A stretch of 64,000 nt of DNA from a virus. The stretch is taken from the UHGV virus genome UHGV-1366919; one strand, given 5' to 3'. The position numbers and the translations under genes are program-made. The notes beneath the pieces are model-generated. The model saw only the letters and a list, made by a program, of their open reading frames with translations, was not told the DNA's origin and made no database searches. Shown here piece by piece: positions 465 through 52,794 of this stretch (positions are counted from its first letter, which is position 1; each line of letters starts with the position of its first letter).

Positions 465-1994
465 ATGAACCTTTCTTTATTGACAGTATTATGTCATGGC
501 AAAAATAATAGCCAACTTAAAGAATTATTAAAAAATAATAAAATATTAAATTTTATTAATACTTTTATTAAAGATAAACCTTATTATGAAACACCCTTTA
601 GATTTTTAAAATTGTTGAGTAAAAATGCAACATTACCTGCCTGTATTATATGTGGAAATATTATTTCTTATAGTATTTGGAATAGACGTAATAATGCTAA
701 ATTTTGTTCTAAAACTTGCAAATATTCTAAAGAAGGTAAAGAAAATACTAGAAAAAATATTGAAAAAACATTAATTGAAAAATATAAGGTTAAAAATATT
801 TTACAACATAAAAAGTTTAAAGAAAAACAAGAATTAACTTGTTTAGCAAAATACGGAACTAAATTTTATTCAAAAACTTCAGAATGTAAAGAAAAAGTTA
901 AGAAGACGTCATTAGAAAAATTTGGTACAAATAATGTGATGTTCAATAAAAAGGTTTTAAAAAATATAAAAAATAATAATTTATTAAAATTTGGGGTTGA
1001 ATGGCCTTTATCAGATAAAACTATTCATAAAAAAACTATGAATAGTCTTGTTAAAAAACATTTAGAAAAGCTTAAAAAGTTTAATTTAACTTTGTTAGAT
1101 GAATATCAATCCACAAAAGAATACTATAATTTTAAATGTGCTACATGTGGTAATACATTTAAAGATCATTTAAAAAATGGTAGAATTCCTATATGCAAAC
1201 ATTGCTTTCCTTCTAATACTTCTATTGGGGAAAAAGAATTATCAAACTTTATTAAACAATTTTCTTCTAATATTAGCTTAAATGATAGAACATTAATAAA
1301 TCCTTTAGAATTAGATATTGTTATTCCAGAAAAACATTTAGCAATAGAATTTAATGGGCTATATTGGCATTCTGAAGAACATGGTAAAAATGAAAATTAT
1401 CATATTAATAAATCATTATTATGTAAATCTAAAAACTTTAATTTAATTCATATATTTGAAGATGAATGGCTTTTTCAAAAAAATATAATAAAAGGTATTA
1501 TAAAAGATTATTTTAATAGCAAAAAAATAAAAACAAATTTTATTACATTTAAAAAAATCGATAATAAATTAGCTAAAAAATTTAATGAAAAATATAATAT
1601 TCTTGGACATATTACTACAAAAAATAATTTTGGACTTTTTTATAAAAATAGATTAATACATGTATTATCTGTTGGAAAACCAAGATTTAATAAAATTTAC
1701 AAATATGAAATTTATCGATTATCCTCAACATTTAATTTTAAAATTGAAAATTATTTTAAAGTTTTAATTGATAATTTACCTTTATCAATTAAAGAATCAT
1801 TAATATTTTATGAAAATAAACGTTTTCCTATTATTAATAAAACATTATTAGATAATTTGATATTTTTATCAAATTCTAAGCCAAGCTATTTTTTTGTCAA
1901 AAATAAAAATAGATATTCAAAATATAATAAAATAAATAGATTTGATTATAAAATTTGGGATTGCGGATCAACACTTTATCAGGTTAAATATTAA
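465..1994 (+). CDS. Homing-endonuclease-like protein, paralog 1. It has a PD-(D/E)xK / Vsr-like nuclease core plus CxxC zinc-ribbon modules and a C-terminal extension.
   Basis: The ELDIVIPEKHLAIEFNGLYWH motif is shared with the ORFs at 11518..12618 and 16362..17711. Two CxxC...CxxC modules are present. Repeated T.LEKYG-like basic motifs are also present. Confidence 0.6.
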   Translation: MNLSLLTVLCHGKNNSQLKELLKNNKILNFINTFIKDKPYYETPFRFLKLLSKNATLPACIICGNIISYSIWNRRNNAKFCSKTCKYSKEGKENTRKNIEKTLIEKYKVKNILQHKKFKEKQELTCLAKYGTKFYSKTSECKEKVKKTSLEKFGTNNVMFNKKVLKNIKNNNLLKFGVEWPLSDKTIHKKTMNSLVKKHLEKLKKFNLTLLDEYQSTKEYYNFKCATCGNTFKDHLKNGRIPICKHCFPSNTSIGEKELSNFIKQFSSNISLNDRTLINPLELDIVIPEKHLAIEFNGLYWHSEEHGKNENYHINKSLLCKSKNFNLIHIFEDEWLFQKNIIKGIIKDYFNSKKIKTNFITFKKIDNKLAKKFNEKYNILGHITTKNNFGLFYKNRLIHVLSVGKPRFNKIYKYEIYRLSSTFNFKIENYFKVLIDNLPLSIKESLIFYENKRFPIINKTLLDNLIFLSNSKPSYFFVKNKNRYSKYNKINRFDYKIWDCGSTLYQVKY

Positions 1995-4869: not shown

Positions 4870-4886
4870 TGTTAAAATATTTAAAG

Positions 4887-6824
4887 TTAGAACCAGTTAG
4901 GTAAATCTCTGACACCAAATTGGTCAAAGCTATTCGGAAGGGTAATCTGGTTTCGATATTCATCTAAACTAAGGGTTTCTCCAAAATCTAAAAGATTCAT
5001 TTGCTTTTTTTGTTTAAAATCATTACTTGATGTAATGGTATTAATTTGACCTCTGCTAAATCCAGCCATCACTCCGATAAATGGAGATTCCATATCCAAC
5101 TCTTTATAAAGAGTATTAGCCCAATCAGTCCTGGGATCCATTTCCCATCGTTTTTTAATAACAAGAGGAATATTATTGACGTCTTTTTTATCAACAATAA
5201 GATAATTGTTAATTACTTTCTTATAAAGAGCAAAAAGACTCCAACATAAAGCCAAAACATGGTCATCATGGAATCCTGGTTGAGCACACCATCGAATATT
5301 ATTACTTTGATTACGAATGCAAGTAAATGTTCTTAATTCTTCAATAGTTTTTTTATCATAAATTTTGACAACTCGACGGTCATGAATATAATATTTCATA
5401 TTATGAACGCCTTCGCTTTTTGTCACTCTATTAGTAATAATACCCGGGAGAACTTTTCGCCCTGGGGTTTGCGGCCCGTATCCTGAACCGAAATTAATAA
5501 ATCTCGGATAATTATTTTCATAGAACAGCTTTTCACAAACATGGGCCCCAGGGCCGTTTCGTTCAACTGACATAATAGGAGAATACCACTGTTTTGCAAT
5601 TTCCAAGACTTTAGCCGCAAAAGTAGTAATATCCATTGTATTAGTTGAATATCTGGCGACCTGCTCAATATTCAGGGGGTCAGTAATATCAAAAATTTGA
5701 ATAACTGAATAGTCTTGTCCTACGCCTTCAGAAGTATCAACTCCCATGGTATAGATTTTTTCGGAATCAGGTTTTTTCCAAATATAATAATTTCCATCTT
5801 CTAATATGTTTAATGGTTCAATTAATTCTTTTGTGAACTTATCAAACATGTTAGGATCAAATGGAGAGCCCGAATTATTAAGAAACCTACATTCATATTC
5901 TTGAGTAAATGTATCATAGCTCATTGTGCTCAATTCAGCATCTTTCCAAGCTTCTGTTCTGCCAGGGAAATCAAACCAAAAAGCTTTCTCTAACGCAAAA
6001 TCGTTTCTTCCTTCTTCCGCCTTAGATACCAATTCATGAAATTTATTACCTACGCCCTTAGGAGTAGATGCCACAATAAGCTTTGCATTTTTATTATTAT
6101 TAAAACGAGAAGCAAGAGTAGGAGTAACAGCAGCCCAGAAAGCTTCAGCATCTTTAGGAGGAATAATAGCAAACTCGTCAAGAAGAAGAACATCAATAGC
6201 TAAACCACGAATAGCATCAGGTGAAGTAGCTGATGTTAAGATACGAGAACCATTCGCTAATGTAAAGAATGTTTTATTAAATTCAAGAACACCGCCCTTA
6301 ATCCAGTTTTCCATCATTTGGAAAGCCAGACGAACACGCATAAAAATTTCGGTTGCTGTTGACTGTTTGTTAGCGACAATACATACAGTTTGGTCAGGAT
6401 GAAATACTGCAACCCATGTAGCAACGATAGTCATTAAGGTCGTATTATGGGAAAGAATACCGTTGGCATAATATAAATGATTTGAATCTTTAGCTAATTC
6501 AAAATCATACATATTTTCCCATTCAGATGTTGCAATTACATCAACAACTTTATCTCCTCCATAATTAGTTGCAATATCTTCGCCAAGTGAATCTTTAGCA
6601 AAGACTTGCTCATCTTTCATAGTAATTAAAATATGATTATCGGCACATTCGAGAATATTACCTGTCTTGAATTTAATAATATATTTTTGATAAGGGACAG
6701 TTTTATTAATAGTTTTAATATCTGTCCATCCCTGATTTGAAGAAATTTGCCAATTTGAAGCATCAAGAACTTCTTCAAATTTTCTAAAAATTGTTTTAGA
6801 TAAATCTTTAAATTTTTTAAGCAT
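4887..6824 (-). CDS. terL: terminase large subunit, downstream part. It holds the intein C-terminal half, the post-P-loop ATPase core and the RNase-H-like nuclease domain.
   Basis: The intein C-terminal blocks are present (GNILECADNHILIT; MYDFELAKDSNHLYYANGILSHN followed by TT). Next come the TerL ATPase core (VCIVANKQSTATEIF...GSRILTSATSPDAIRG) and Walker B (LLLDEFA). The nuclease aspartates are also present (MGVDTSEGVGQDYSV; FHDDHVLALCW). Confidence 0.85.
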   Translation of the reverse strand: MLKKFKDLSKTIFRKFEEVLDASNWQISSNQGWTDIKTINKTVPYQKYIIKFKTGNILECADNHILITMKDEQVFAKDSLGEDIATNYGGDKVVDVIATSEWENMYDFELAKDSNHLYYANGILSHNTTLMTIVATWVAVFHPDQTVCIVANKQSTATEIFMRVRLAFQMMENWIKGGVLEFNKTFFTLANGSRILTSATSPDAIRGLAIDVLLLDEFAIIPPKDAEAFWAAVTPTLASRFNNNKNAKLIVASTPKGVGNKFHELVSKAEEGRNDFALEKAFWFDFPGRTEAWKDAELSTMSYDTFTQEYECRFLNNSGSPFDPNMFDKFTKELIEPLNILEDGNYYIWKKPDSEKIYTMGVDTSEGVGQDYSVIQIFDITDPLNIEQVARYSTNTMDITTFAAKVLEIAKQWYSPIMSVERNGPGAHVCEKLFYENNYPRFINFGSGYGPQTPGRKVLPGIITNRVTKSEGVHNMKYYIHDRRVVKIYDKKTIEELRTFTCIRNQSNNIRWCAQPGFHDDHVLALCWSLFALYKKVINNYLIVDKKDVNNIPLVIKKRWEMDPRTDWANTLYKELDMESPFIGVMAGFSRGQINTITSSNDFKQKKQMNLLDFGETLSLDEYRNQITLPNSFDQFGVRDLPNWF

Positions 6825-6963
6825 TTTTAAAGGTAATTTTGTTAATAAACTTTTTAAGCTTATTTTGAATTTTAATTAATTTAAAAAAGATTCCAACGTT
6901 AATCTTAAAGGATAAATTTAAAGGCTTATAGCGCACGCAAATTGGCACACTTGGAGAAAGACA
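6444..6963 (-). other. mini-intein inserted in the TerL P-loop. It is about 173 aa and has no homing-endonuclease domain. A +1/-2 frame break lies inside it (around 6817..6875).
   Basis: The upstream extein ends LLISSRQWGK, followed by Cys+1 (CLSPSVPICV..). The intein ends ..GILSHN, followed by TTLMT. Splicing would restore the Walker A sequence SRQWGKTT. The Cys codon to the last Asn codon spans 520 nt, which is not a multiple of 3. Confidence 0.75.
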
Positions 6964-7272
6964 TTTGCCCCACTGACGAGAGCTTATAAGCAGTGTCTTC
7001 TTATTGCGCTGAATTGTTTTTAAGATTTTTTTCTGTTTTTCAAAAAGGGTAATATGTTCTTTTTGACCGCTTAACGCAGAAATAATATAAAAGTGATTTT
7101 CAGCAAAATAGATAATATCTTTCTTACACCGGGCAATCTCTTTAATCATCGCCGGAGTATAGGTATAAGTTGTAGTATTCTTAGGTAAATTAGGATTATT
7201 AAGATAATATTCCTCATTTGCTACTACTTCTTCACCCCTGAAATCAATGATCTTTGTAGCTTTTTTAGGCAT
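6817..7272 (-). CDS. terL: terminase large subunit, N-terminal part up to Walker A, plus the intein N-terminus
   Basis: Canonical TerL N-terminus: FAENHFYI..G..I.L...Q..IL. Then Walker A (SSRQWGK), then Cys+1 of the intein. The ORF ends 8 nt into the next ORF, in a different frame. Confidence 0.8.
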   Translation of the reverse strand: MPKKATKIIDFRGEEVVANEEYYLNNPNLPKNTTTYTYTPAMIKEIARCKKDIIYFAENHFYIISALSGQKEHITLFEKQKKILKTIQRNKKTLLISSRQWGKCLSPSVPICVRYKPLNLSFKINVGIFFKLIKIQNKLKKFINKITFKNA

Positions 7273-7275
7273 AAC

Positions 7276-7875
7276 TTACAGAATTTTATTGATGAAAGAA
7301 TCAGGATGAATCAAAGTATTAGTAACACTCATAATCAATAATTCTTTAAAAGTACTATTGATAATAGTATAAAGATATTCATCCATAGAATGAGCATTAT
7401 CAACAATAATCAAATCATAGGTTTGTCCTCTTAGAGCAAATTCTGCAGAGTTCATTGATTTAAACCTAATAAGAGAATTATTACCGAAATAAAATTCAGA
7501 TTTATTGTAATCACGAACACAACCTATAATTTCATTGTTAAGTTCATTTAATGTATCAAGAGCAATACCCAATTCATTAATCATTAAATCAGCCATTTTC
7601 CTATTCTCGGTAATGAATAAAATTCTGGAATTTGGATTATAATAAGCCTGGGCAAGAGCAAGGGCGATACAAGTTACTGATTTATTAGACTTTCGATTAT
7701 CAGAAGATAATAATAATTTTAAACGTTTTTTATTAGACCGCTTAAGAACTTCCATAGTGAATAAAGAAGATTCAAATGGAATTGCCCGTTCTTTAGAATT
7801 AATCACAAAAATTTCATTTTCATTTAAGGCATCTTCTAAAGCTTTGATGATATTTTCATTATTAAACATATACAA
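7276..7875 (-). CDS. TerL-ATPase-domain-like paralog with degenerate Walker motifs. Candidate pseudo-ATPase or decayed duplicate.
   Basis: Aligns with the TerL ATPase domain. LLLSSDNRKSNKS matches LLISSRQWGKTT. YNPNSRILFITEN matches FHPDQTVCIVANK. NNSLIRFKSMNSAEFALRGQTYDLIIVDNA matches NGSRILTSATSPDAIRGLAIDVLLLDEFA. The P-loop glycine is lost and Walker B DE has become DN. The start is TTG at 7875 or ATG at 7869. It is separated from terL by an in-frame stop. Confidence 0.6.
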   Translation of the reverse strand: MYMFNNENIIKALEDALNENEIFVINSKERAIPFESSLFTMEVLKRSNKKRLKLLLSSDNRKSNKSVTCIALALAQAYYNPNSRILFITENRKMADLMINELGIALDTLNELNNEIIGCVRDYNKSEFYFGNNSLIRFKSMNSAEFALRGQTYDLIIVDNAHSMDEYLYTIINSTFKELLIMSVTNTLIHPDSFINKIL

Positions 7876-7923
7876 TTAATTAAAGCCCTGGAACTGATTT
7901 AATTCCTTTAAATATTAAACATA

Positions 7924-9486
7924 ATGATGAAAAGCTCTAATATTGGAGATATAGCTGAAGAAATTTTCGCTGAAAGTTATGGTACAGTTGGTAATTTAGT
8001 ACCCGAAGAACCAATTACTAAGAAAATTCCTTGTCCTGAAAAGACTAAAAATAAAGTAAAAATTCCGCCTCGTTTCAAAGGTTCTCCTTTCGATTCTTCT
8101 GTTGAAAAGGATTACTATAAAAATGAAACAAATTGTTTTGATGAAGACGAAGAAGACTTTGAAACAGACGATCAGGAAATTCAAGATATTATTCTTCAGC
8201 AATATGAAGGTATTGGTCCTAGGACTAATGGAATGGCATTATCTGATATTCTCGGTTATTTCTCCGTTTCTGATGGAGTTTATCCTAAGAATGAAGTCAT
8301 GCGGGTTCTGCAAGATATGATTAATAAAAATATTCTTGAAATTGATCCTATCACCAAAAAGATCTTTAAATCTTTAGAAGAAGATGAAGAGGATGAATTT
8401 ATTACTCCTGAAGAAATTACTGATGAAGAAAAAGGAAATGATTTAATTGATTCTGTTATCGATTATTTTGAACAATCTACTTCCGGTTCTATAGGAGGTA
8501 TTAATCTTTCTCAAATCTTAAAGGACGTAACTTCTAATACCGGCGCTTCCCGAGCTGAAGTAGTTCAGGCTATCAAAGACCTGCTTCAAAGTAATATTCT
8601 TAAAAAGGGTGTTACTGAAGGTACCATCATTTTAAATTCTACTTCCAAAACAGATGAAGTAGAAGAAGATGCAGAAGGACCTATTCCAGTTATTAATCAA
8701 GAAACCCCCGAAACGCTTCGAGCTAAAGGCTGGACAGAAACAGCACCTGGTATTTTTGTTGGCCCTGACGGCGTTCAAAAATATGCTTTAACTGGAGAAT
8801 CATATAATACTAAGCTAAATAAACATATGAGTAATTTTAACGATGATAATTTCAGCAAGTTATGCGAAGAATTTGAAAAAGAATTCGATAATGTGGATGT
8901 GAGTCTTGACGATTCTACTGAAGGCCTTGATGAATTTGCTGATGAAACTGAAGTATCTGATGAAGAAGGCGAAACTGTGACCATGGAAATTCCTCGTCAC
9001 CTGGTTGATGCTATTACAGAACTTGCAGCTATTTTTAGTGGTTCTGAAGATGAACCTGTCGATGATCTCGCTACCGATGAAGAAGCTACGATCGACCTTA
9101 TGGACGGAGACGGCGATGAAGCCGAAGTTTCTGTTGAAGAAACTGATGAAGATGAAGAAGGTTGCGAAGATGATGAAGAATTCAACTTTGACGAAGACGA
9201 AGAAACCATTGCTGATACGGCTGGTTCTATCTTTGATGCTTCTTTTGGACCTAATGAAGGCGGAGCTTCTGTAACCAAGGCTTCTACTACTCTTCCGGAA
9301 AAACGCCGTAAGCCGATTGAAGGAGCTTATAAGCCCAATGCCGGCGGACAAGCTTATGATGCTTCTACCCGCAATGGCGGTGCTTCTGTGACTAAGGCTA
9401 CTCCTGCTTTTGATAAGTCTGGAAAGCCAGTTGCTTCTAAGGTAAGTCAGAAAGCCAAATCTAAGAATTCTATTTTTGATTTGTAA
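7924..9486 (+). CDS. hyper-acidic 520-aa protein with two winged-helix-like repeats and a basic C-terminal GGASVTKA repeat region
   Basis: There are long D/E runs (EEDEEDFETDDQE; EETDEDEEGCEDDEEFNFDEDEE). A roughly 50-aa module is repeated (G.ALSDIL...EV..VLQDMI.KNIL / G.NLSQIL...EV.QAIKDLLQSNIL). The C-terminus carries GGASVTKAST.. twice. Confidence 0.7.
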   Translation: MMKSSNIGDIAEEIFAESYGTVGNLVPEEPITKKIPCPEKTKNKVKIPPRFKGSPFDSSVEKDYYKNETNCFDEDEEDFETDDQEIQDIILQQYEGIGPRTNGMALSDILGYFSVSDGVYPKNEVMRVLQDMINKNILEIDPITKKIFKSLEEDEEDEFITPEEITDEEKGNDLIDSVIDYFEQSTSGSIGGINLSQILKDVTSNTGASRAEVVQAIKDLLQSNILKKGVTEGTIILNSTSKTDEVEEDAEGPIPVINQETPETLRAKGWTETAPGIFVGPDGVQKYALTGESYNTKLNKHMSNFNDDNFSKLCEEFEKEFDNVDVSLDDSTEGLDEFADETEVSDEEGETVTMEIPRHLVDAITELAAIFSGSEDEPVDDLATDEEATIDLMDGDGDEAEVSVEETDEDEEGCEDDEEFNFDEDEETIADTAGSIFDASFGPNEGGASVTKASTTLPEKRRKPIEGAYKPNAGGQAYDASTRNGGASVTKATPAFDKSGKPVASKVSQKAKSKNSIFDL

Positions 9487-11505: not shown

Positions 11506-11542
11506 AAAAAAGCTGAATCAAATTAATGATTCAGCTTTTTTA
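11506..11542. terminator. Bidirectional palindromic terminator, family member (aaaaaagctgaatca-aattaa-tgattcagctttttt)
   Basis: Perfect palindrome with A-run and T-run flanks. It sits between convergent genes. Confidence 0.6.
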
Positions 11543-12618
11543 ATCTCTTCTTGAATTAAAAGTTTTATTTGATCTTTATTTTTCTTCCATTTACTTTCCC
11601 AAATTTCTATCAATGTAATTCCCCTTTCAATACATTGATTTCTTTTATTTTCATGATAACCCAGATTTCGATCTTCGTGTAATTTATGCCAGTAATCTCC
11701 ATTATATTCAAAGGCTAATTTTAATTCGGGGAGATAAATATCAAGCTCTAATTGATTATCAAGTTGATTTCTAGAATTTTTTATAATTTTTCTTGAATAT
11801 ATCGAATTAATATATTCAAAAAGTTCTTTTTCACCTTTAGATCTTTTCGAAGCTTTTACACATTTAATACAGCCACTTCCATTTAAATGAATATATGCTC
11901 TTTGTCGAAAGACACCATGCCTTGGACAAATAATATTCACATAATCACGAGCACTTTTATAGATAACTAAGGAATAATTATATTTGTCTCCATGAACTTC
12001 TTGAGCTCTTTTAATAAATTCTTCAGTTGTTAAAAATTGCTTTTCTCTTTTACATTCTGGACATTCATTGCCTTGTAAATGTGACCCTGCATGTTGTCGA
12101 AATAATCCATGCTTAGGACATATTATTGTTATATGATTTTTTACGCCATTATAAATCACTTTAGAATAATCATAATAATTTCCATGCACTTTTTTAGCTT
12201 TTTCAATAAATTCTTCTCTTGATAAAAGATCTTTTATTTTAGCACAATAAGGACACCCACTTCCATTTAAATGGCTGCCAGCCATTTGTTCAAATTTATG
12301 CCCGCATTTATTACAAATAATCCAAATTTTTGATTTACAATTTACGTATATCGATATTGAATAATTATACTTATCACCATGAACTTTTCTTGCTTTTTCT
12401 ATAAATTTTTCTGTTGTTAACTGTGCCGTGGGAATACATTTAGGACATCCACATCCTCTTAAATGTTCTGATGCTTTTTGCCAAAAATATCCATGCTCAG
12501 GACAACCAATTTCTATTTTTGCAAGACTACTTTTATATTCAACTCTTGAATAATCATATTTGTCACCATGTATTTCTTTAGCCCTTTGTATAAATTCTTC
12601 AGTTGTTAGCTTTTTCAT
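11518..12618 (-). CDS. Homing-endonuclease-like protein, paralog 2. Four tandem Zn-ribbon modules plus a C-terminal PD-(D/E)xK/Vsr-like nuclease.
   Basis: The module (F)I.KA..VHGDKY(D/N)YS...Y......I(I)C..HG.F.Q....HL.G.GCP.C occurs four times. The C-terminus carries ELDIYLPELKLAFEYNGDYWH. Confidence 0.65.
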   Translation of the reverse strand: MKKLTTEEFIQRAKEIHGDKYDYSRVEYKSSLAKIEIGCPEHGYFWQKASEHLRGCGCPKCIPTAQLTTEKFIEKARKVHGDKYNYSISIYVNCKSKIWIICNKCGHKFEQMAGSHLNGSGCPYCAKIKDLLSREEFIEKAKKVHGNYYDYSKVIYNGVKNHITIICPKHGLFRQHAGSHLQGNECPECKREKQFLTTEEFIKRAQEVHGDKYNYSLVIYKSARDYVNIICPRHGVFRQRAYIHLNGSGCIKCVKASKRSKGEKELFEYINSIYSRKIIKNSRNQLDNQLELDIYLPELKLAFEYNGDYWHKLHEDRNLGYHENKRNQCIERGITLIEIWESKWKKNKDQIKLLIQEEIKKAESLI

Positions 12619-13358: not shown

Positions 13359-16205
13359 TTAAGCGCTAAATTCTGTTGAAATCACGCCAGATCTAGAAGC
13401 GGTCAAGTCAATGAGAATGCGTTCTGCACTACGCGTTGGAGCTGCATATGTTGAGATACGCATTACACCGGCATCGATCTCAGTTTCCGTATTATTCCTT
13501 TCATCGCAAACAAGAACATAAGAATAGATTGCTCGTTGTTCTTGTAGTGCATCAAATGCTGGAGTTAACACATTTGTTACATTCAAACGGGTGTACAAAG
13601 TATTACCTTCAAACAGCCATTGCTTGGCAGTATCACGCAACAGTTTAAGAATGTAAAGCATTGTTCTTCGGGCAGAAATTTGATCTAACGCTGAGTCGCG
13701 CTTTATCATAGTTCTAATTCCGTACAACATTGTTCCGGAAGAAGGAGATACGATAATCGGATTAAGAGAAATACGATATAAATCATCTCGTTGCTTTTGC
13801 TGAGTGGAGAAGGAAATATCAAGCACAGAACTTAGTACACCATTATTCATTCCAGCGGCGGCTTGCCATGGACCATATAAGGCATCCGTAGCAGCAATCT
13901 TTTGAGCGACAAATCCAGAAGCAGGAGCCCAGAATTGAGTACTGTTTACAGGATCTTGTACCTTTAAGAAATACGGATAAACAGCCATATAAGAGGAAGC
14001 TAATCCATCATATAAATGCCTGTTAGGCCAGTAGATTGAAGTCGAGAAAGAATGCTTAACATTATCCAGAGCAGTATAAGCTGCATTGACTAAGGGCATT
14101 CCAAATTGTTTTTCAATCTTATTATCCTTGCCTTCAACGGAAATTTGACGAATTGTATCACCAATGAAGAATACATCGCCTCGTCCGCCTTCTTGCTGAG
14201 CAGAAGCTAATTTTAAGAAAGCCGATTGAATAGCTCGATGATTAGCGATTACTTGTTCAGCTGTGGAAGATAATGTAGACTTACCAGTACGCATATCCGT
14301 TACACCTTGAATAACTTTGGTATCATCGAATAATGCAGCTTCTGGATCATAGCCATTCGGATATTGCTCCTTAACTTTATCTTGTTCAGTTGTTTGGCCA
14401 TCCCCACGCTCGGTATCAGCCCTAATTGCAGCCTGGAGCTTTTCTTCATAGCTTTGATAAGCCACATCCATAGCTCCGACATAGATAGTTCCCATACCGC
14501 CTTCCAACAGAAGGTCAACGTCATAGAGTTCTTCATTTTCGACTAATTCAAGGGCAGCCTCGATTTTCTTGGGAAGATTACCAATGATTTTAGAAGCATT
14601 ATTGGAACGGGCATATAAACCTAACGGATACATGGAATCACCCATTTCAAAGGTCGGATAATCAGTTGGAATACTTTGAAGAACAGCCTTTGAAATACCG
14701 GCCGGAGAAGCCATGATGTCTTCGATGGAACCCGCCATTTCATCATCAGTCAATGCAATGTCAAGCAATTGCTGGGCATAAATACGAACCTTAATCTTCG
14801 GAGAACCGTCAACATATAGTCCGCGAGAATTTAACGCTCCTGAGAAGTTCGGATTAACAAACATGCGAACTAAAGTATCATTAGCCGTTGTATTCTCAAT
14901 AAAGAAGTTAACTGCAGATGTAGTATACTTGGAAGTAGTCTGTCGTCCATATTCTAAGGAAGCATTATATCCTTGAGTAATCAGGGCAGAAAGTTTAAGA
15001 GCATCTCCAGAATTAGTAGCCTGGCGAACCTTAAAGACGCCTACATTTAATGTATCATTCCATTGAGCTCCGGAAATATCAAAATCAGTGATGGATTCTT
15101 CCATAACCTGAGAGATACATCCTTTCAACGGAGAAGAAAGCTTAAAGTCAAGGCGTTCATTAGGAACAGTCGTATACTGAAGACCCGTAAGACCTTCTTC
15201 AATAGAAGCAGGAAGCTGAGTTACAGTCTTAAGCTTGCGCACGGCCGCATAAGAAGTACCAGGATCAGAGAAAGCATTATCGGATAACGCAAGATAAAAA
15301 CCTTCAAAAAGATCATTTGTTACCGTCTTGCCAAAGTTAAGAGCTAAGAAAGCAAACTGCCCCAAATCGGCAAGCTGAGTAGAAATAGTTTGAGGAATTG
15401 CATCGGACCAGTTAAATTCTCCAGAACCATCCAAAGCTTGTCCATTTAAAAATCGATAATACTGTTCAATAGAAATATTAAACTGAACAGGTTCACCGAT
15501 TAAAAATGTAGCGGAATCTTCATATTCACCTTTGATACCGGCGGAACCATCTGAATAATTCGTAATAGGCTTAAAGGAATTATTAGCAGATTGAACATAA
15601 TAAGTTGCAAAGACAGCATTCTGAGTTGGAACATCTGTTACCTCAGTATATTCAGATCCATTCTTAGTATAGATCGTAACCTTATTGGTGAAATTAGTTA
15701 ACGGAGTTCCGGCCTGGTCCGTATAATATTGAACCTGCACTTTAGCAGCAATATCAGGAGAAACAGGAGTATAAGAAGTAGAACGGGTTACCTTGGTATA
15801 AAGCTGAACAGATGTATCAATACGTTGTTCAGGGGTAGCTTCATTATAAACTTCTTCAGAATCAATAGCATATCCAAGAGCCGGATAAGCAAGAATAGAA
15901 ACGGAAGCAGATTTAGTATCTCCTAAGTCTACACCATAAGGAAGTCGGGAAACACTTACATAAGCAGCAGAATTTAATGCTGCGTCTACTGTTGCATAAG
16001 AATAGCGCTCAGAACTTGTAACAGGTTCTCCGAATATTTCAACATATTCACTGATTGTCGAAACAGAAGTAACTTCAGAAGTAGGTCCTTGTTGGCTGAA
16101 AATTGGTATAAAGACCGACGTTCCGGCAGACTGCGCCGCTCGTGTCGATTGGTCGCGTTCCAAAATTTCGACGCCCGGGCTGATAATTGTGGGTGTAATT
16201 GCCAT
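13359..16205 (-). CDS. tail sheath protein (contractile tail), 948 aa
   Basis: The N-terminus MAITPTIISPGVEILERDQS resembles sheath N-termini such as T4 gp18 (MTLLSPGIELKETTVQ). The C-terminal region matches the conserved gp18 C-terminal domain pattern: LNPIIVSPSSGTMLYGIRT...DQISARRTMLYILK...YSYVLVCDERNNTETEIDAGVMRISTYAAPTRSAERILIDL. Confidence 0.85.
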   Translation of the reverse strand: MAITPTIISPGVEILERDQSTRAAQSAGTSVFIPIFSQQGPTSEVTSVSTISEYVEIFGEPVTSSERYSYATVDAALNSAAYVSVSRLPYGVDLGDTKSASVSILAYPALGYAIDSEEVYNEATPEQRIDTSVQLYTKVTRSTSYTPVSPDIAAKVQVQYYTDQAGTPLTNFTNKVTIYTKNGSEYTEVTDVPTQNAVFATYYVQSANNSFKPITNYSDGSAGIKGEYEDSATFLIGEPVQFNISIEQYYRFLNGQALDGSGEFNWSDAIPQTISTQLADLGQFAFLALNFGKTVTNDLFEGFYLALSDNAFSDPGTSYAAVRKLKTVTQLPASIEEGLTGLQYTTVPNERLDFKLSSPLKGCISQVMEESITDFDISGAQWNDTLNVGVFKVRQATNSGDALKLSALITQGYNASLEYGRQTTSKYTTSAVNFFIENTTANDTLVRMFVNPNFSGALNSRGLYVDGSPKIKVRIYAQQLLDIALTDDEMAGSIEDIMASPAGISKAVLQSIPTDYPTFEMGDSMYPLGLYARSNNASKIIGNLPKKIEAALELVENEELYDVDLLLEGGMGTIYVGAMDVAYQSYEEKLQAAIRADTERGDGQTTEQDKVKEQYPNGYDPEAALFDDTKVIQGVTDMRTGKSTLSSTAEQVIANHRAIQSAFLKLASAQQEGGRGDVFFIGDTIRQISVEGKDNKIEKQFGMPLVNAAYTALDNVKHSFSTSIYWPNRHLYDGLASSYMAVYPYFLKVQDPVNSTQFWAPASGFVAQKIAATDALYGPWQAAAGMNNGVLSSVLDISFSTQQKQRDDLYRISLNPIIVSPSSGTMLYGIRTMIKRDSALDQISARRTMLYILKLLRDTAKQWLFEGNTLYTRLNVTNVLTPAFDALQEQRAIYSYVLVCDERNNTETEIDAGVMRISTYAAPTRSAERILIDLTASRSGVISTEFSA

Positions 16206-16320: not shown

Positions 16321-17714
16321 TTAGCACCAAAATAAAATCAGGATAAAATAATATCCAATTTATGGCAATTAAACGACTTACGACAGAAATTTTTATAGAA
16401 AGGGCCAAAGCAAAACACGGTATAGACAGGTATGATTACTCGGCAACCAATTATACCCATTGTAATAATAAAATTATAATCAAGTGTTTAATACATAATT
16501 TAATATTTGAAACCTACCCCCATAATCATTTAAGAGGGAATGGAGGTTGCCCTCTATGTGCTAAAGAAGGACGATCTTTATCATGGCAATCTTTTTTAGA
16601 AAAAAGCATCGAAGCTCACGGGCAAAATCGATATGATTATTCATATGCTAAAAAAGAGTATAAAGGAACCAAATCAAAAATTACAATAATATGTAAAAAA
16701 TGTGGACATAGATTTGTTCAATTACCTTCTAATCATATAAAAGGCCATGGTTGTATAAATTGTGTAAATTTAGCTAAATCATTTGATAAAAATTTCTTTA
16801 TTAAAGAGGCAGAAAAGAAACATGGTATTGGGAGATATGATTACTCAAAAATAAAATATAAAAATTCATATACTCCCATTTATATTATTTGTAATAAATG
16901 TAATAAAAAATTTTATCAGCAGCCACGAATACATTTAAAAGGAATTGGATGTTCTCATTGTTATTATAAAAGTAAAACATTAACTAAGGAAGAATTTATT
17001 AAAAGAGCTGAAGAAATACATGAAAAAGGAAAATATGATTATTCTAATGTAGAATATATACAGTCTAACATTAAGATTAAAATTAAATGTAATAAATGTA
17101 ATAATATTTTTTGGCAATATCCCCATGAACATTTAAAAGCCAAAGGATGCCGAATTTGTGCAATTAAAGATATTACTGATACAAAAGAAACATTTATTAA
17201 AAAGGCAAAGAAAGTTCATAAGGATTTTTATGATTATTCAAGTATAAAATATATAAATTCTCAAACTTTAATTTATATTAATTGTCCAAAACATGGTTTT
17301 TTCGCACAACGGCCAAATGCTCATCTAAGAGGTCATGGATGTCCGAATTGTGCACTCGCTGCACAAAGATCTCGAGGAGAAATAGAACTTGGAGAATTTA
17401 TTAAATCAATTTATTCCAATAAAATTTTAAAAAATTCTAAAACACAACTTGGAAATAAAATGGAATTGGATATATATCTTCCTGAATTAAAACTCGCCAT
17501 TGAGTATAATGGCGATTATTGGCATAATTTGAAAGAGGCCAAACATCCTGGCTGCCATGAAGATAAAAGAAACCGATGTAAAGAAAGAGGAATTAAACTT
17601 ATTGAAGTTTTAGATACGGAATGGCAAAAGAATAAAGATCAAATTAAAGAATCTCTTAAAAAACAAATTGGAGAACTTATCAAAATTAGCACCAAAATAA
17701 AATCAGGATAAAAT
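16321..17714 (+). mobile_element. Homing-endonuclease gene cassette bounded by 29-30 bp direct repeats (ttagcaccaaaataaaatcaggataaaat)
   Basis: The repeat at 16321..16350 and the one at 17686..17714 are identical over 29 nt. The second copy encodes the last residues (ISTKIKSG*) of the enclosed ORF. Confidence 0.55.
16362..17711 (+). CDS. Homing-endonuclease-like protein, paralog 3. Six tandem Zn-ribbon modules plus a C-terminal PD-(D/E)xK/Vsr-like nuclease.
   Basis: Repeated ..HG..RYDYS...Y......I.C..H..F......HL.G.GC..C modules. The C-terminus carries MELDIYLPELKLAIEYNGDYWH. Confidence 0.65.
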   Translation: MAIKRLTTEIFIERAKAKHGIDRYDYSATNYTHCNNKIIIKCLIHNLIFETYPHNHLRGNGGCPLCAKEGRSLSWQSFLEKSIEAHGQNRYDYSYAKKEYKGTKSKITIICKKCGHRFVQLPSNHIKGHGCINCVNLAKSFDKNFFIKEAEKKHGIGRYDYSKIKYKNSYTPIYIICNKCNKKFYQQPRIHLKGIGCSHCYYKSKTLTKEEFIKRAEEIHEKGKYDYSNVEYIQSNIKIKIKCNKCNNIFWQYPHEHLKAKGCRICAIKDITDTKETFIKKAKKVHKDFYDYSSIKYINSQTLIYINCPKHGFFAQRPNAHLRGHGCPNCALAAQRSRGEIELGEFIKSIYSNKILKNSKTQLGNKMELDIYLPELKLAIEYNGDYWHNLKEAKHPGCHEDKRNRCKERGIKLIEVLDTEWQKNKDQIKESLKKQIGELIKISTKIKSG

Positions 17715-36656: not shown

Positions 36657-39501
36657 TCCTTTAAATATCTCCAAGGTAATGATAAACTTTGAAATTAATT
36701 CAATTATTAATTCTAATAGTGTTCCGTCTGAAGTTAAGGACACTATTAAACCTTATACATTTATTGAATTTATTTCAAAAACTTCTTTTGAAAATGATAA
36801 AGAAGTCTTTTTGACTTATTATAAAGAATATCTTACTGAATGGGCCAAAGTTAAAAATGATGACCATCAAATTATTGAGACTAAAGAATTAATTCAGTCT
36901 CAGATTATTGATTTACTTAAAATTATTACTGTTTCTTATGCTACCTTTGAAGAACAGGTCTTTTTATCTAATCTAAATTGGAATTTTAATTCATTAGAAG
37001 ATCCTAATGAGAAATTAAAGGCTAAAAATGCGATTTACTCAGCATTACCTATCTTTGTTTCCAGAATTAAAGATATTGCCGCTTTTTATAGAAATAAACG
37101 TACCGAAGCAACTTTTGTAATTGAGCGAAATAAGATTAAAGGTACTCAACTTTCTGTAGAAAAGATTATTTTTGATAAAATTTTAAGTTTTCTTTTTAAT
37201 GAAAATCCTGAACAAGTAAATTATGTTCAAAATTATTTGAATGTCTCTATCGATAACTTTGTAGACATTTATTCTGATTATTTTGATATTGACCGGGCTT
37301 CATCACTTTCTTGTGACTATAACGATATTGATTCTTCTCTTTATTTTGAGTTAGAAAATATATTAAGAGACATGATCTTTGACGGAAATGTCTATCTTCG
37401 GGAAATTCCGTTAATAGCCCAGCTTAGTCTTGACTTATCTCAGGATTGTGTCGGAGATAAACTTACTTTAAAGAATGAATTGCTGGAAAGCAGTAAAGTT
37501 TCTTTAATATCCGATGATGAAAAAATTAATATTAGAAAGAAACTTTATAAAAAGTACATTGGCGTTGATTTTTATTACTTGATTAAAGATTCTGAAGGTA
37601 ATATTACTACTGATGTATTCATTAAAGCTGATAATCCTTCAAATAATCTTCTAAACCAGCAAACTGTTGATACTCCATTTACTGAATCCAAACAATTAGA
37701 ACTTCTCAAGAATATTGGTTTATTTTTTAAACCAGATAAAACAAGTTTACTTAGAGTTAATACAACTAACTTTGATTATTCTATTGATGAAAGTAAAGTG
37801 GAACCCAACAAGGTTTATATTTTTCCTGATCCAAAAATTTATGGTAATGTAGCATTTAATCGACAAAAGGATTATCCTTATATTATTGAATATTCTTTAA
37901 CTGAATATTCTAAAAACTTTAACTTTGGCTGGGCCGTTAATGATCCATTAGTTGTTAGTGATGCTCAGGCAATGTTTGCCTACTATTCTAAAGAACAAGA
38001 TGTTGACAAGCTCAATAAAAATAATATTGTTTCTTTAAATTTCTATGAACTTTTTGATAAAGGATTTATAAGTTCCTTTAAATCCGACTTATATGGTAAT
38101 AAATTTGCTATTTTTAAAGAAAAAAATGGTAAATTTGCCCGAGATTGGAATTTTACTCCATTTGTTCCTCAGCCCGAAGTAGAAGAAAAGTTTTTATTAG
38201 TCGATGGAGGTGTTTTAGGAGTTGATGATGTGGGAGTTTCTACTGAAGTTTCGGCAGATAAAATTACATGGACTCCTGAAAATCATTATTATTCTTACTT
38301 TATCGAGGGAGGTATAAGCACCCTTCTTCCAGCTTATTTCCGTGCTTATATTCCTAATGGTGCAACAATTGGGAATGGTGATTTGACTCTTGCTATTGAG
38401 GATATTTTAAATGAACCGTTTAGTGCTGTAATAGATGGCAAGTTTATTACAACTGACTATAACGAAATTATCGATAACAATCAGTTTACTTTGCCTAAAA
38501 TTTATTATCAGAATGAAGAATACAAGACAGAACCTCTTCCTGATCATCTAAAACCTGATTATGAAAAAAATAAGGAAAAGACTTATTTTGAAATTCTTGA
38601 AGAAAAAGGTACAATCTTAATTTCTATTACTGGATTAGGACAAATTACTGACATATATTCAGCATTTCCCTGGTGGCAAACTTCTGCCGATAATGAAATT
38701 TATAATTTTTTTATTGAAAATGCTATTGATATTGATGTTATTGAGAATATATTCATCATTAAAGCTAAAAATCCAGCGACAGGAGCGATTCATTTATTAT
38801 TTGAAGGCATTAAATTTAATCCTCTGACTAATAAATTTGAACAGCTCTTTACTAATAAACAAGCTATTTTCTTTAATAATGAAAATTCTTTGATTAAAGC
38901 TTCTTATTTTGATGCCTTTAATTACAAGAGTTTTGAACTTATTAATCCTGCTTTCTTTTCTAGAAATGCAAATATTTGTGATAAAGGTTCCGATATTTTC
39001 TATATTGAGAAACTTCATAAATGTTATTTTGCAGTAATGAATGTCTCCATTAGTGAAAAATATGTCAATGGAACAAAAATTGAATTTCCTGTTTATTATC
39101 CGGACATTTATGAAATTGATTTAATTAATTTTACCGTTAAAAAATATTATTTTCATACTGAAGAGCAAAAAGCTGAATCTTTCCAAATTCCTTCTTCTCT
39201 CTTTAAAAATGGATCAGTAATGATTCAAAAGGCTGGAAATCCATGCTTAACTTATTCATTCGATACAAATACATTTATGCTTTCTTATGTCTTGTATGAT
39301 GTGAATATGTGCCCTTATGTCTATAAACATTTCTTCCAATTAAGTGTATCTGGAGTTGAATTATTTGGAGAAATAGATCCAGATTCTTTAGACTCAACCG
39401 TTTATAGTCCGGCATTTACCGGACAGGAATCTGTCATTACGCCAGGAGATAAAACAACGACTCTTTATCTGAATTTTAATACCAACTTTATTGTATCTTA
39501 A
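36634..39501 (+). CDS. large tail/baseplate structural protein (955 aa)
   Basis: Long ORF in the structural block. Confidence 0.55.
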   Translation: MRILDSISPLNISKVMINFEINSIINSNSVPSEVKDTIKPYTFIEFISKTSFENDKEVFLTYYKEYLTEWAKVKNDDHQIIETKELIQSQIIDLLKIITVSYATFEEQVFLSNLNWNFNSLEDPNEKLKAKNAIYSALPIFVSRIKDIAAFYRNKRTEATFVIERNKIKGTQLSVEKIIFDKILSFLFNENPEQVNYVQNYLNVSIDNFVDIYSDYFDIDRASSLSCDYNDIDSSLYFELENILRDMIFDGNVYLREIPLIAQLSLDLSQDCVGDKLTLKNELLESSKVSLISDDEKINIRKKLYKKYIGVDFYYLIKDSEGNITTDVFIKADNPSNNLLNQQTVDTPFTESKQLELLKNIGLFFKPDKTSLLRVNTTNFDYSIDESKVEPNKVYIFPDPKIYGNVAFNRQKDYPYIIEYSLTEYSKNFNFGWAVNDPLVVSDAQAMFAYYSKEQDVDKLNKNNIVSLNFYELFDKGFISSFKSDLYGNKFAIFKEKNGKFARDWNFTPFVPQPEVEEKFLLVDGGVLGVDDVGVSTEVSADKITWTPENHYYSYFIEGGISTLLPAYFRAYIPNGATIGNGDLTLAIEDILNEPFSAVIDGKFITTDYNEIIDNNQFTLPKIYYQNEEYKTEPLPDHLKPDYEKNKEKTYFEILEEKGTILISITGLGQITDIYSAFPWWQTSADNEIYNFFIENAIDIDVIENIFIIKAKNPATGAIHLLFEGIKFNPLTNKFEQLFTNKQAIFFNNENSLIKASYFDAFNYKSFELINPAFFSRNANICDKGSDIFYIEKLHKCYFAVMNVSISEKYVNGTKIEFPVYYPDIYEIDLINFTVKKYYFHTEEQKAESFQIPSSLFKNGSVMIQKAGNPCLTYSFDTNTFMLSYVLYDVNMCPYVYKHFFQLSVSGVELFGEIDPDSLDSTVYSPAFTGQESVITPGDKTTTLYLNFNTNFIVS

Positions 39502-40091: not shown

Positions 40092-40107
40092 GCTTTAAAT
40101 ATCCTCA

Positions 40108-52755: not shown

Positions 52756-52794
52756 GCTGTGGAATATTTAAAGTACACTTAAATAAAGTTACGC

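Follow-up and report, generated by a model that had tools for sequence, protein, structure and literature searches.

How a phage builds one packaging ATPase from a gene broken in two is the question raised by the large terminase subunit (TerL) locus of the virus genome UHGV-1366919. In the window that we analysed, 64,000 nucleotides (nt) of this genome with 31% GC, TerL is encoded on the minus strand by two open reading frames (ORFs), here ORF1 and ORF2, and the break between them falls inside an intein. A preliminary description of this DNA had recognised the intein and explained the break either as a homopolymer indel or as inactivation of the gene. We conclude that neither applies. TerL is very probably a "fractured gene", made of two adjacent overlapping genes that carry the halves of an atypically split intein, with trans-splicing of their products predicted.

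The intein and its two genes

The terminase identity of ORF2 is supported by Pfam, with Terminase_6N (PF03237, 32.6 bits) and Terminase_6C (PF17289, 24.9 bits) both above their cut-offs. The Walker A and B motifs are present, which identifies a T4-type (gp17-like) TerL. ORF1 terminates as ...LLISSRQWGK^CLSPSVPICVRYKPLNLSFKINVGIFFKLIKIQNKLKKFINKITFKNA, where the caret marks the splice junction, with 47 more residues after the Cys and then the stop. ORF2 begins MLKKFKDLSK... (MLKKFKDLSKTIFRKFEEVLDASNWQ...), and its intein part closes with MYDFELAKDSNHLYYANGILSHN^TTLMT, that is ...SHN^TT. We refer to the two intein parts as IntN and IntC, and to the flanking host parts as N-extein and C-extein.

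The N-extein aligns with intein-free TerLs from residue 1. The predicted spliced TerL has 621 amino acids (aa) and aligns without gaps at SRQWGK^TTLMT with intein-free TerLs of 614-643 aa, being 57-66% identical to the five of them that were measured (614-623 aa). Several earlier statements are upheld by these alignments: that the N-extein ends in LLISSRQWGK before a Cys, that a mini-intein (HINT domain) occupies the Walker A/P-loop GK^T of a T4-type TerL, and that splicing would rebuild SRQWGKTT, given that SRQWGK(S/T)TLMT is uninterrupted in intein-free homologues. Two C-terminal intein blocks had also been named in ORF2. One, MYDFELAKDSNHLYYANGILSHN, stands, but GNILECADNHILIT is block B, an N-terminal TxxH-type motif (ADNH).

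The sequence also confirms that 520 nt, a number indivisible by 3, separate the Cys codon (TGT, 6961-6963) from the Asn codon (AAT, 6444-6446), and that the two ORFs overlap by 8 nt (6817..6824) in different frames at a junction flanked by A/T runs. The correction of 1 nt proposed on this basis, which was to give one Hint domain of 173-174 aa, is the wrong model. The domain consists of 48 + 127 = 175 aa on two polypeptides.

When the concatenated intein parts were compared with solved structures using phmmer, the best matches were the naturally split inteins gp41-1 and VidaL and the C-fragment (CatC) of Cat, a consensus atypically split intein. Residue 12 of the CatC chain aligns with residue 20 of the window IntC. 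That this alignment begins near the ORF2 Met hinted at a natural split of the intein at an N-proximal ("atypical") position. A profile built from 16 IntC sequences and searched against the PDB retrieved gp41-1 (expect value E=5.9e-10), VidaL (3e-8) and CatC (1.5e-7), so the Hint similarity anticipated from a profile search is present, with the Pfam Intein_splicing model remaining below its threshold.

Structure prediction agrees with these searches. The AlphaFold2 model of IntN plus IntC, from a 25-row alignment, has a predicted local distance difference test score (pLDDT) of 88.5 and a predicted template modelling score (pTM) of 0.83. Within IntN the model places two strands (13-18, 23-28) and a helix (29-50), with pLDDT >89. 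The sole low-confidence stretch, ~51-68, lies across the natural break, IntN ending at model residue 54. Foldseek against the PDB returned inteins or BIL/HINT domains for all of the top 50 matches, with VidaL first (E=5e-8, TM score 0.85), followed by gp41-1, PolB16, NrdJ-1, Cat and others. A single-sequence AlphaFold2 prediction of the fused intein reached a pLDDT of 47.7, and the fold assignment makes no use of the long helix that it predicted.

As for the residues needed for splicing, Cys1 is found in the window, in all 7 complete N-fragment homologues and in the contiguous alleles, while H64, D107, H126 and N127 are invariant in the IntC alignment (A2). IntC holds ADNH, MYDFEL and SHN, placing the split N-terminal to block B, and in the model the first helix comes just before the break. 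The split site is therefore the "atypical" N-proximal one (after the first helix, before block B) and not the canonical endonuclease-insertion site. Judged from the sequences and the model together, the pattern lies far beyond chance.

Conservation of the split among relatives

An independently assembled strain (L014, 202.5 kb) matches the window at 99.02% identity over 6456 nt, and the alignment has 63 mismatches and 0 gaps. Its ORF1/ORF2 junction is identical to that of the window. The single-nucleotide polymorphisms (SNPs) between the two comprise 2 synonymous and 1 non-synonymous in the ORF1 frame, and 9 synonymous and 3 non-synonymous in the ORF2 frame.

A search with ORF1 recovered 8 N-fragment clusters, 53-99% identical to it. 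In seven of them the protein stands alone, is 140-151 aa long and stops 39-48 residues past GK^C, and the eighth (P0004) is a truncated 98-aa call. The N-fragment is encoded separately in every relative at 53-85% identity. In three of them (L009-L011) the halves share a frame, and TAA TAA with nine further bases precedes the ATG of the second half. No 1-nt correction makes the halves of the relatives contiguous, because either these in-frame stops with their 12-nt spacer or a whole endonuclease gene stands between them.

The C-fragments show the same conservation. Each split C-fragment opens with a Met and has, within a few residues, a conserved KKLSDTVVRKF-type motif. Since 47 C-fragment clusters start at the equivalent Met with this conserved head, the coding sequence is under selection from the Met onward. 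One cluster of 645-aa C-fragments (P0009) has 555 member sequences, and the split arrangement is found on ~200-kb contigs with intact structural modules. By these comparisons, the "frame break" is a conserved natural split, neither a sequencing error nor a dead gene.

For a census of alleles at the P-loop, we took the 120 best TerL homologues of ORF2 and sorted them with the IntC profile. Split C-fragments account for 47 of the 120, with IntC ending at median residue 126 and the +1 residue being Thr in 34 and Ser in 13. Contiguous P-loop inteins of the same family are found in 4 (P0046-48, P0083), another 53 are intein-free and read [S/G]RQx[G/S]K[S/T], and the remaining 16 clusters are other or partial. 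The N-termini of intein-free P0027 and P0025 are nearly identical to those of split P0007 and P0008. These represent a presence/absence polymorphism in close relatives, as expected of a mobile element. With blastn, the locus had no match among cultured phages; tblastn gave ~33% identity to the Ackermannviridae TerL, so that matches to cultured phages are at the protein level alone. In cultured Ackermannviridae (e.g. Shigella phage MK-13), the identical site is occupied by a homologous mini-intein in contiguous form, ARQSGK^C...SHN^TT.

The census contained two further kinds of ORF. Some TerL C-fragments hold two or three inteins (P0086 with 859 aa, P0081, P0083, P0085): an N-terminal split P-loop IntC and contiguous inteins at SHN^CNMLEE or SHN^THFMEE and at SHN^CQFDEV. 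Among the sites of these multi-intein TerLs, the intein ending SHN^CQFDEV is the nearest match to the Cat/AceL-type consensus. Additionally, five ORFs of 474-486 aa (P0059, P0065, P0069, P0082, P0113) start at the Met of ...TLMTIYALW, directly after the splice site and without an IntC. They may reflect gene calls that are truncated, or else a different type of fracture at the same site.

Four other explanations of the locus were considered. The intein halves might hold a two-chain TerL together non-covalently, with no splicing at all. Split-intein halves bind tightly, and there is a precedent of fractured phage enzymes that assemble unligated, the fragments of split NrdA of phage Aeh1 reportedly assembling without ligation. 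However, what is interrupted is the Walker A loop itself (GK^T), where a residual 175-residue domain would disrupt the ATP site. In addition, relatives of ~33-99% identity retain every residue needed for splicing (Cys1, His, Asp, His-Asn, Thr/Ser+1), a signature of selection for splicing. We consider a non-covalent enzyme quite unlikely.

Programmed +1 ribosomal frameshifting in a 17-codon overlap window, giving an ORF1-ORF2 fusion that splices in cis, would also suit an A/T-slippery region in which the ORF2 frame is open 17 codons upstream of its ATG. Such an arrangement is not conserved, though: the halves share a frame and are parted by TAA TAA in L009-L011, and gene(s) of ~1.1 kb lie between them in L002, L003, L006 and L013. 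The Met start and the next IntC residues are conserved in the 47 clusters, and the IntN tail is variable, as expected of a free C-terminus. This makes frameshifting very unlikely.

An indel from sequencing or assembly would mean that the real gene is a single TerL ORF with a contiguous mini-intein. The A/T homopolymer runs at the junction, the overlap of just 8 nt and the existence of contiguous alleles of the family (P0046-48, MK-13) are what it would predict. Yet the junction is identical and gapless in an independent assembly diverged by 1%, N-fragment clusters are stand-alone in 8 of 8 cases, the 47 C-fragment clusters start at the equivalent Met with an IntC head conserved as protein from there onward, and an indel explains neither tandem in-frame stops nor an intervening whole gene. 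This explanation is extremely improbable and effectively refuted. Finally, a genuinely inactivated TerL or intein, that is a pseudogene in a defective phage, is hardly credible: a pair of ORFs in different frames does superficially recall a frameshift pseudogene, but both halves are full length with catalytic, ATPase and nuclease motifs intact, the strain SNPs are mostly synonymous in both frames, the split is the majority state of the intein family (47 versus 4 contiguous clusters), and the ~200-kb contigs that carry it have intact structural modules.

Endonuclease genes and the surrounding locus

In two relatives (L002 and L003) a 371-aa gene lies between the halves, its 3' end overlapping the IntC ATG. 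Two domains are recognised in the L002 product, a CTCF-like C2H2 zinc finger (E=2e-6) and a nuclease domain of the DUF559/Vsr-like type (25.4 bits, cut-off 20.6). A phmmer search of this endonuclease against the PDB returned a C2H2 zinc finger alone, with no solved Vsr-like or I-Bth0305I relative. Such an endonuclease gene begins ~90 nt past the N-fragment in L013, and L006 has two tandem copies, the second frameshifted. In L012, whose N-fragment is 85% identical to that of the window, the halves are separated by just a decayed endonuclease remnant with in-frame stops.

Two of these contigs have further peculiarities. In L006 (1..4480 of ena:ERZ27247227:k141_557396), unrelated genes follow the N-fragment and the tandem endonucleases, and no C-fragment is found within 4 kb; in that phage the two halves may lie at a distance from each other, or the contig may be chimeric. 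In the L012 remnant (1170..1431), TGA replaces the Trp codon of the conserved motif ...(F/L)DGDYWH. Pseudogene decay is the more probable reading and recoding of TGA was rejected, as truncation and frame shifts also affect this gene and 5 long ORFs of the window terminate in TGA.

Among relatives the endonuclease gene may be intact, duplicated or decaying, or absent, a range that fits the model of gene fracturing put forward by Dassa et al.; the window stands at the end of this range that lacks the gene. The split probably began with the insertion of a free-standing Vsr-like homing-endonuclease gene into a contiguous P-loop mini-intein; in the window phage the gene would since have been lost, the split remaining as a stable state. 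The window IntN tail, ...KKFINKITFKNA before the stop, resembles ...CIKFIKNVF at the end of the L002 endonuclease, and both embed the IntC ATG as AAA AAT G. The tail may be a remnant of the endonuclease 3' end, a similarity too short and too A/T-rich to decide.

Regarding expression, the stop-within-start overlap of ORF1 and ORF2 is typical of coupled translation. A Shine-Dalgarno motif is found upstream of 0 of the 49 window ORFs, and for this reason its absence before ORF2 is uninformative on initiation. After translation, IntN would dock onto a partly folded IntC and complete the HINT domain. Cys1 would then form a thioester at the GK^C junction (class 1 pathway), attack by Thr+1 (transesterification) would give a branched intermediate, and the terminal Asn would cyclise to release the intein. 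An O-to-N acyl shift would leave the 621-aa TerL with an intact Walker A, SRQWGKTT. The genomic layout and its conservation, the HINT fold, the conserved catalytic residues, the exact rebuilding of the host sequence and the endonuclease genes of relatives are observations, and we infer trans-splicing and the order of evolutionary events.

Some observations weigh against a fractured gene that splices in trans. The Thr of block B is replaced by an invariant Ala (ADNH), with the His invariant, and Pfam PF14890 (Intein_splicing) scores 19.5 bits, short of its gathering score of 35.8. Conservation of the IntN tail is poor in both length (39-48 aa) and sequence, and at 48 aa the window IntN exceeds the 15-37 aa of characterised atypical split inteins. 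The upstream opening of the ORF2 frame and the slippery region, discussed above, are likewise what frameshifting would need. In the window no endonuclease gene lies between the halves, which overlap by 8 nt, so that the proposed history of fracture by a homing endonuclease is drawn from the relatives. For the P-loop TerL intein family as a whole, splicing is also something that we infer.

The features of the locus are listed in Table 1.

Table 1. Parts of the divided TerL gene in the window of UHGV-1366919.
Feature	Coordinates	Strand	Description
TerL N-fragment gene (ORF1)	6817..7272	-	151 aa; N-extein plus IntN
N-extein	6964..7272	-	103 aa; delimited by alignment to intein-free TerLs P0017-P0028 (...SRQWGK^S/TTLMT)
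First half of Walker A, SRQWGK	6964..6981	-	End of the N-extein
IntN	6820..6963	-	48 aa; Cys1, block A strands, long alpha-helix, variable tail
ORF1 stop codon	6817..6819	-	TAA
8-nt ORF1/ORF2 overlap, ATGCTTAA	6817..6824	-	ORF1 TAA within the first ORF2 codons (ATG CTT AAA)
TerL C-fragment gene (ORF2)	4887..6824	-	645 aa; IntC plus C-extein; supported by Pfam and homologous clusters
IntC	6444..6824	-	127 aa; conserved head (KKLSDTVVRKF-type), blocks B, F and G
IntC block B (ADNH)	6621..6662	-	GNILECADNHILIT
IntC blocks F/G, MYDFEL...NGILSHN	6444..6512	-	MYDFEL...NHLYYANGILSHN
C-extein	4890..6443	-	518 aa from Thr+1 (TTLMT, finishing Walker A)
C-extein motifs		-	Walker B (VLLLDE), then RNaseH-like nuclease domain
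ORF2 stop	4887..4889	-	

Directly upstream of the N-fragment gene, at the position expected for a small terminase, is a 199-aa ORF (7276..7875, -). It matches ResIII (25.6 bits) and resembles a degenerate P-loop/Walker B ATPase fragment (...LIIVDNAH...). ORFs of 197-202 aa are found at the equivalent position in L002, L012 and L014, the likeness being by position alone. Beyond it, a 520-aa ORF on the other strand (7924..9486, +) is very acidic and of low complexity, with Asp/Glu-rich runs, and is divergent from the terminase cluster. Pfam gave no match for this ORF, and ORFs of 519-520 aa occupy the equivalent position in L009 and L014.

Zinc-finger domains, either DUF4379 (treble clef) or DUF7487, are present in three ORFs in the window, at 465..1994 (+), 11518..12618 (-) and 16362..17711 (+). 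In tblastn, the C-terminal regions of these ORFs weakly match the Vsr-like nuclease of L002/L006 (E 3e-6 to 4e-4). All three are probably homing-endonuclease genes of the free-standing kind, dispersed about the structural module on both sides of the tail-sheath gene (13359..16205).

The motif CTTTAAATAT occurs 5 times in the window, against 1.55 expected, a count reached in 3 of 100 shuffles. The copies are at 4877..4886 (-), 7906..7915 (+), 36659..36668 (+), 40093..40102 (+) and 52764..52773 (-); the first four, which were the copies inspected for this, sit ~7-12 nt upstream of a start codon. This may be a late-promoter-like element.

Significance and comparison with known systems

The arrangement has already been described in kind and is not conceptually new. 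What the locus and its relatives provide is a series at one site, with intein-free, contiguous, split with intact endonuclease, split with decaying endonuclease, and split without endonuclease alleles. This series supports the 2009 gene-fracturing model and shows the split outliving the element that caused it. In the P-loop family the split state outnumbers the contiguous one (47 versus 4 clusters) and is kept after loss of the endonuclease.

The P-loop inteins share Cys1, Thr/Ser+1, an IntN of 39-48 aa with an unusually long helix, and, in complete members, an IntC of ~113-131 aa (median 126) with the head motif KKLSDTVVRKF. They may constitute an experimentally uncharacterised family of atypically split inteins that occupies the TerL P-loop and is neither part of the AceL/GOS/Cat group nor allelic with it, a tentative proposal to which we give slightly less than even weight. 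If it holds, the split would be an evolutionarily stable and possibly advantageous state and not a transient scar, the advantage possibly being a coupled, stoichiometric or late-timed assembly of the packaging ATPase. Protein engineering would also gain from the family a new, orthogonal pair for trans-splicing, since short N-fragments make atypically split inteins sought-after tools for protein labelling. In terms of annotation, such loci are easily mis-called as frameshifted or pseudogenised terminases, and we suggest labelling them as TerL N- and C-fragments with a split intein.

The nearest precedent is the report of "fractured genes" with split inteins and Vsr-like endonucleases by Dassa et al. 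2009 (PMC2677866). It includes a gp17-like terminase from Lake Gatun, fractured at an unusual point, with a C part of 122 residues. At such loci, free-standing Vsr-like endonuclease genes lie between the halves, their 3' end overlapping the downstream start, and one fractured locus without an endonuclease gene was reported (PMC2677866). The window has in common with the Lake Gatun terminase a T4-type TerL in two pieces, an N-proximal break, a C part of similar size (127 here) and the presence in it of all splicing motifs except N1. The overlap of the endonuclease 3' end with the downstream start recurs in L002 and L003. In contrast, the window has no endonuclease gene and its halves overlap by 8 nt. 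Likened by description, the window intein is of the same kind as that terminase intein and possibly of the same family.

The TerL inteins AceL (IntN 25 aa, IntC 104 aa, Cys1/Cys+1) and GOS (37 and 115 aa, Ser1/Cys+1) are characterised examples (PMC11766414). Together with Cat, they resemble the window intein in being naturally split, in having a short IntN and a long IntC with blocks B, F and G, and in being split at a topologically equivalent place, with homology to CatC (1.5e-7) and a Foldseek match to 6dsl_B. They differ in having Cys+1, where the window has Cys1/Thr+1 at GK^T, in an IntN of 25-37 aa as opposed to 48 aa, and in the ~25% identity to Cat. The best match of CatC (54 bits) is the intein ending SHN^CQFDEV in the multi-intein P0086, with the P-loop family scoring 14-26 bits, and this site corresponds to the uninterrupted QEYE^CRFL of the window. 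The window intein thus appears non-allelic with AceL/GOS/Cat, the AceL/GOS site being placed from Cys+1 and from the mapping of CatC onto the multi-intein TerLs.

VidaL (6vgv) originates from environmental sequences and has an IntN of 16 aa. Together with gp41-1 (6qaz), a split intein from environmental sequence data (PMC2677866), it gives the best sequence and structure matches to the window intein. Both reside in other host proteins, however, and gp41-1 is split at the canonical site, with a long IntN and a short IntC. As for the insertion point, GK^T is the "classic" one of the P-loop, used by the contiguous mycobacteriophage TerL1-a (Kelley et al. 2016, PMC5050341). TerL1-a shares with the window the position between the Walker A Lys and Thr, and the homologous MK-13 intein shares the identical site. 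Both are single-chain inteins that splice in cis, whereas in the window the corresponding domain is divided between two genes.

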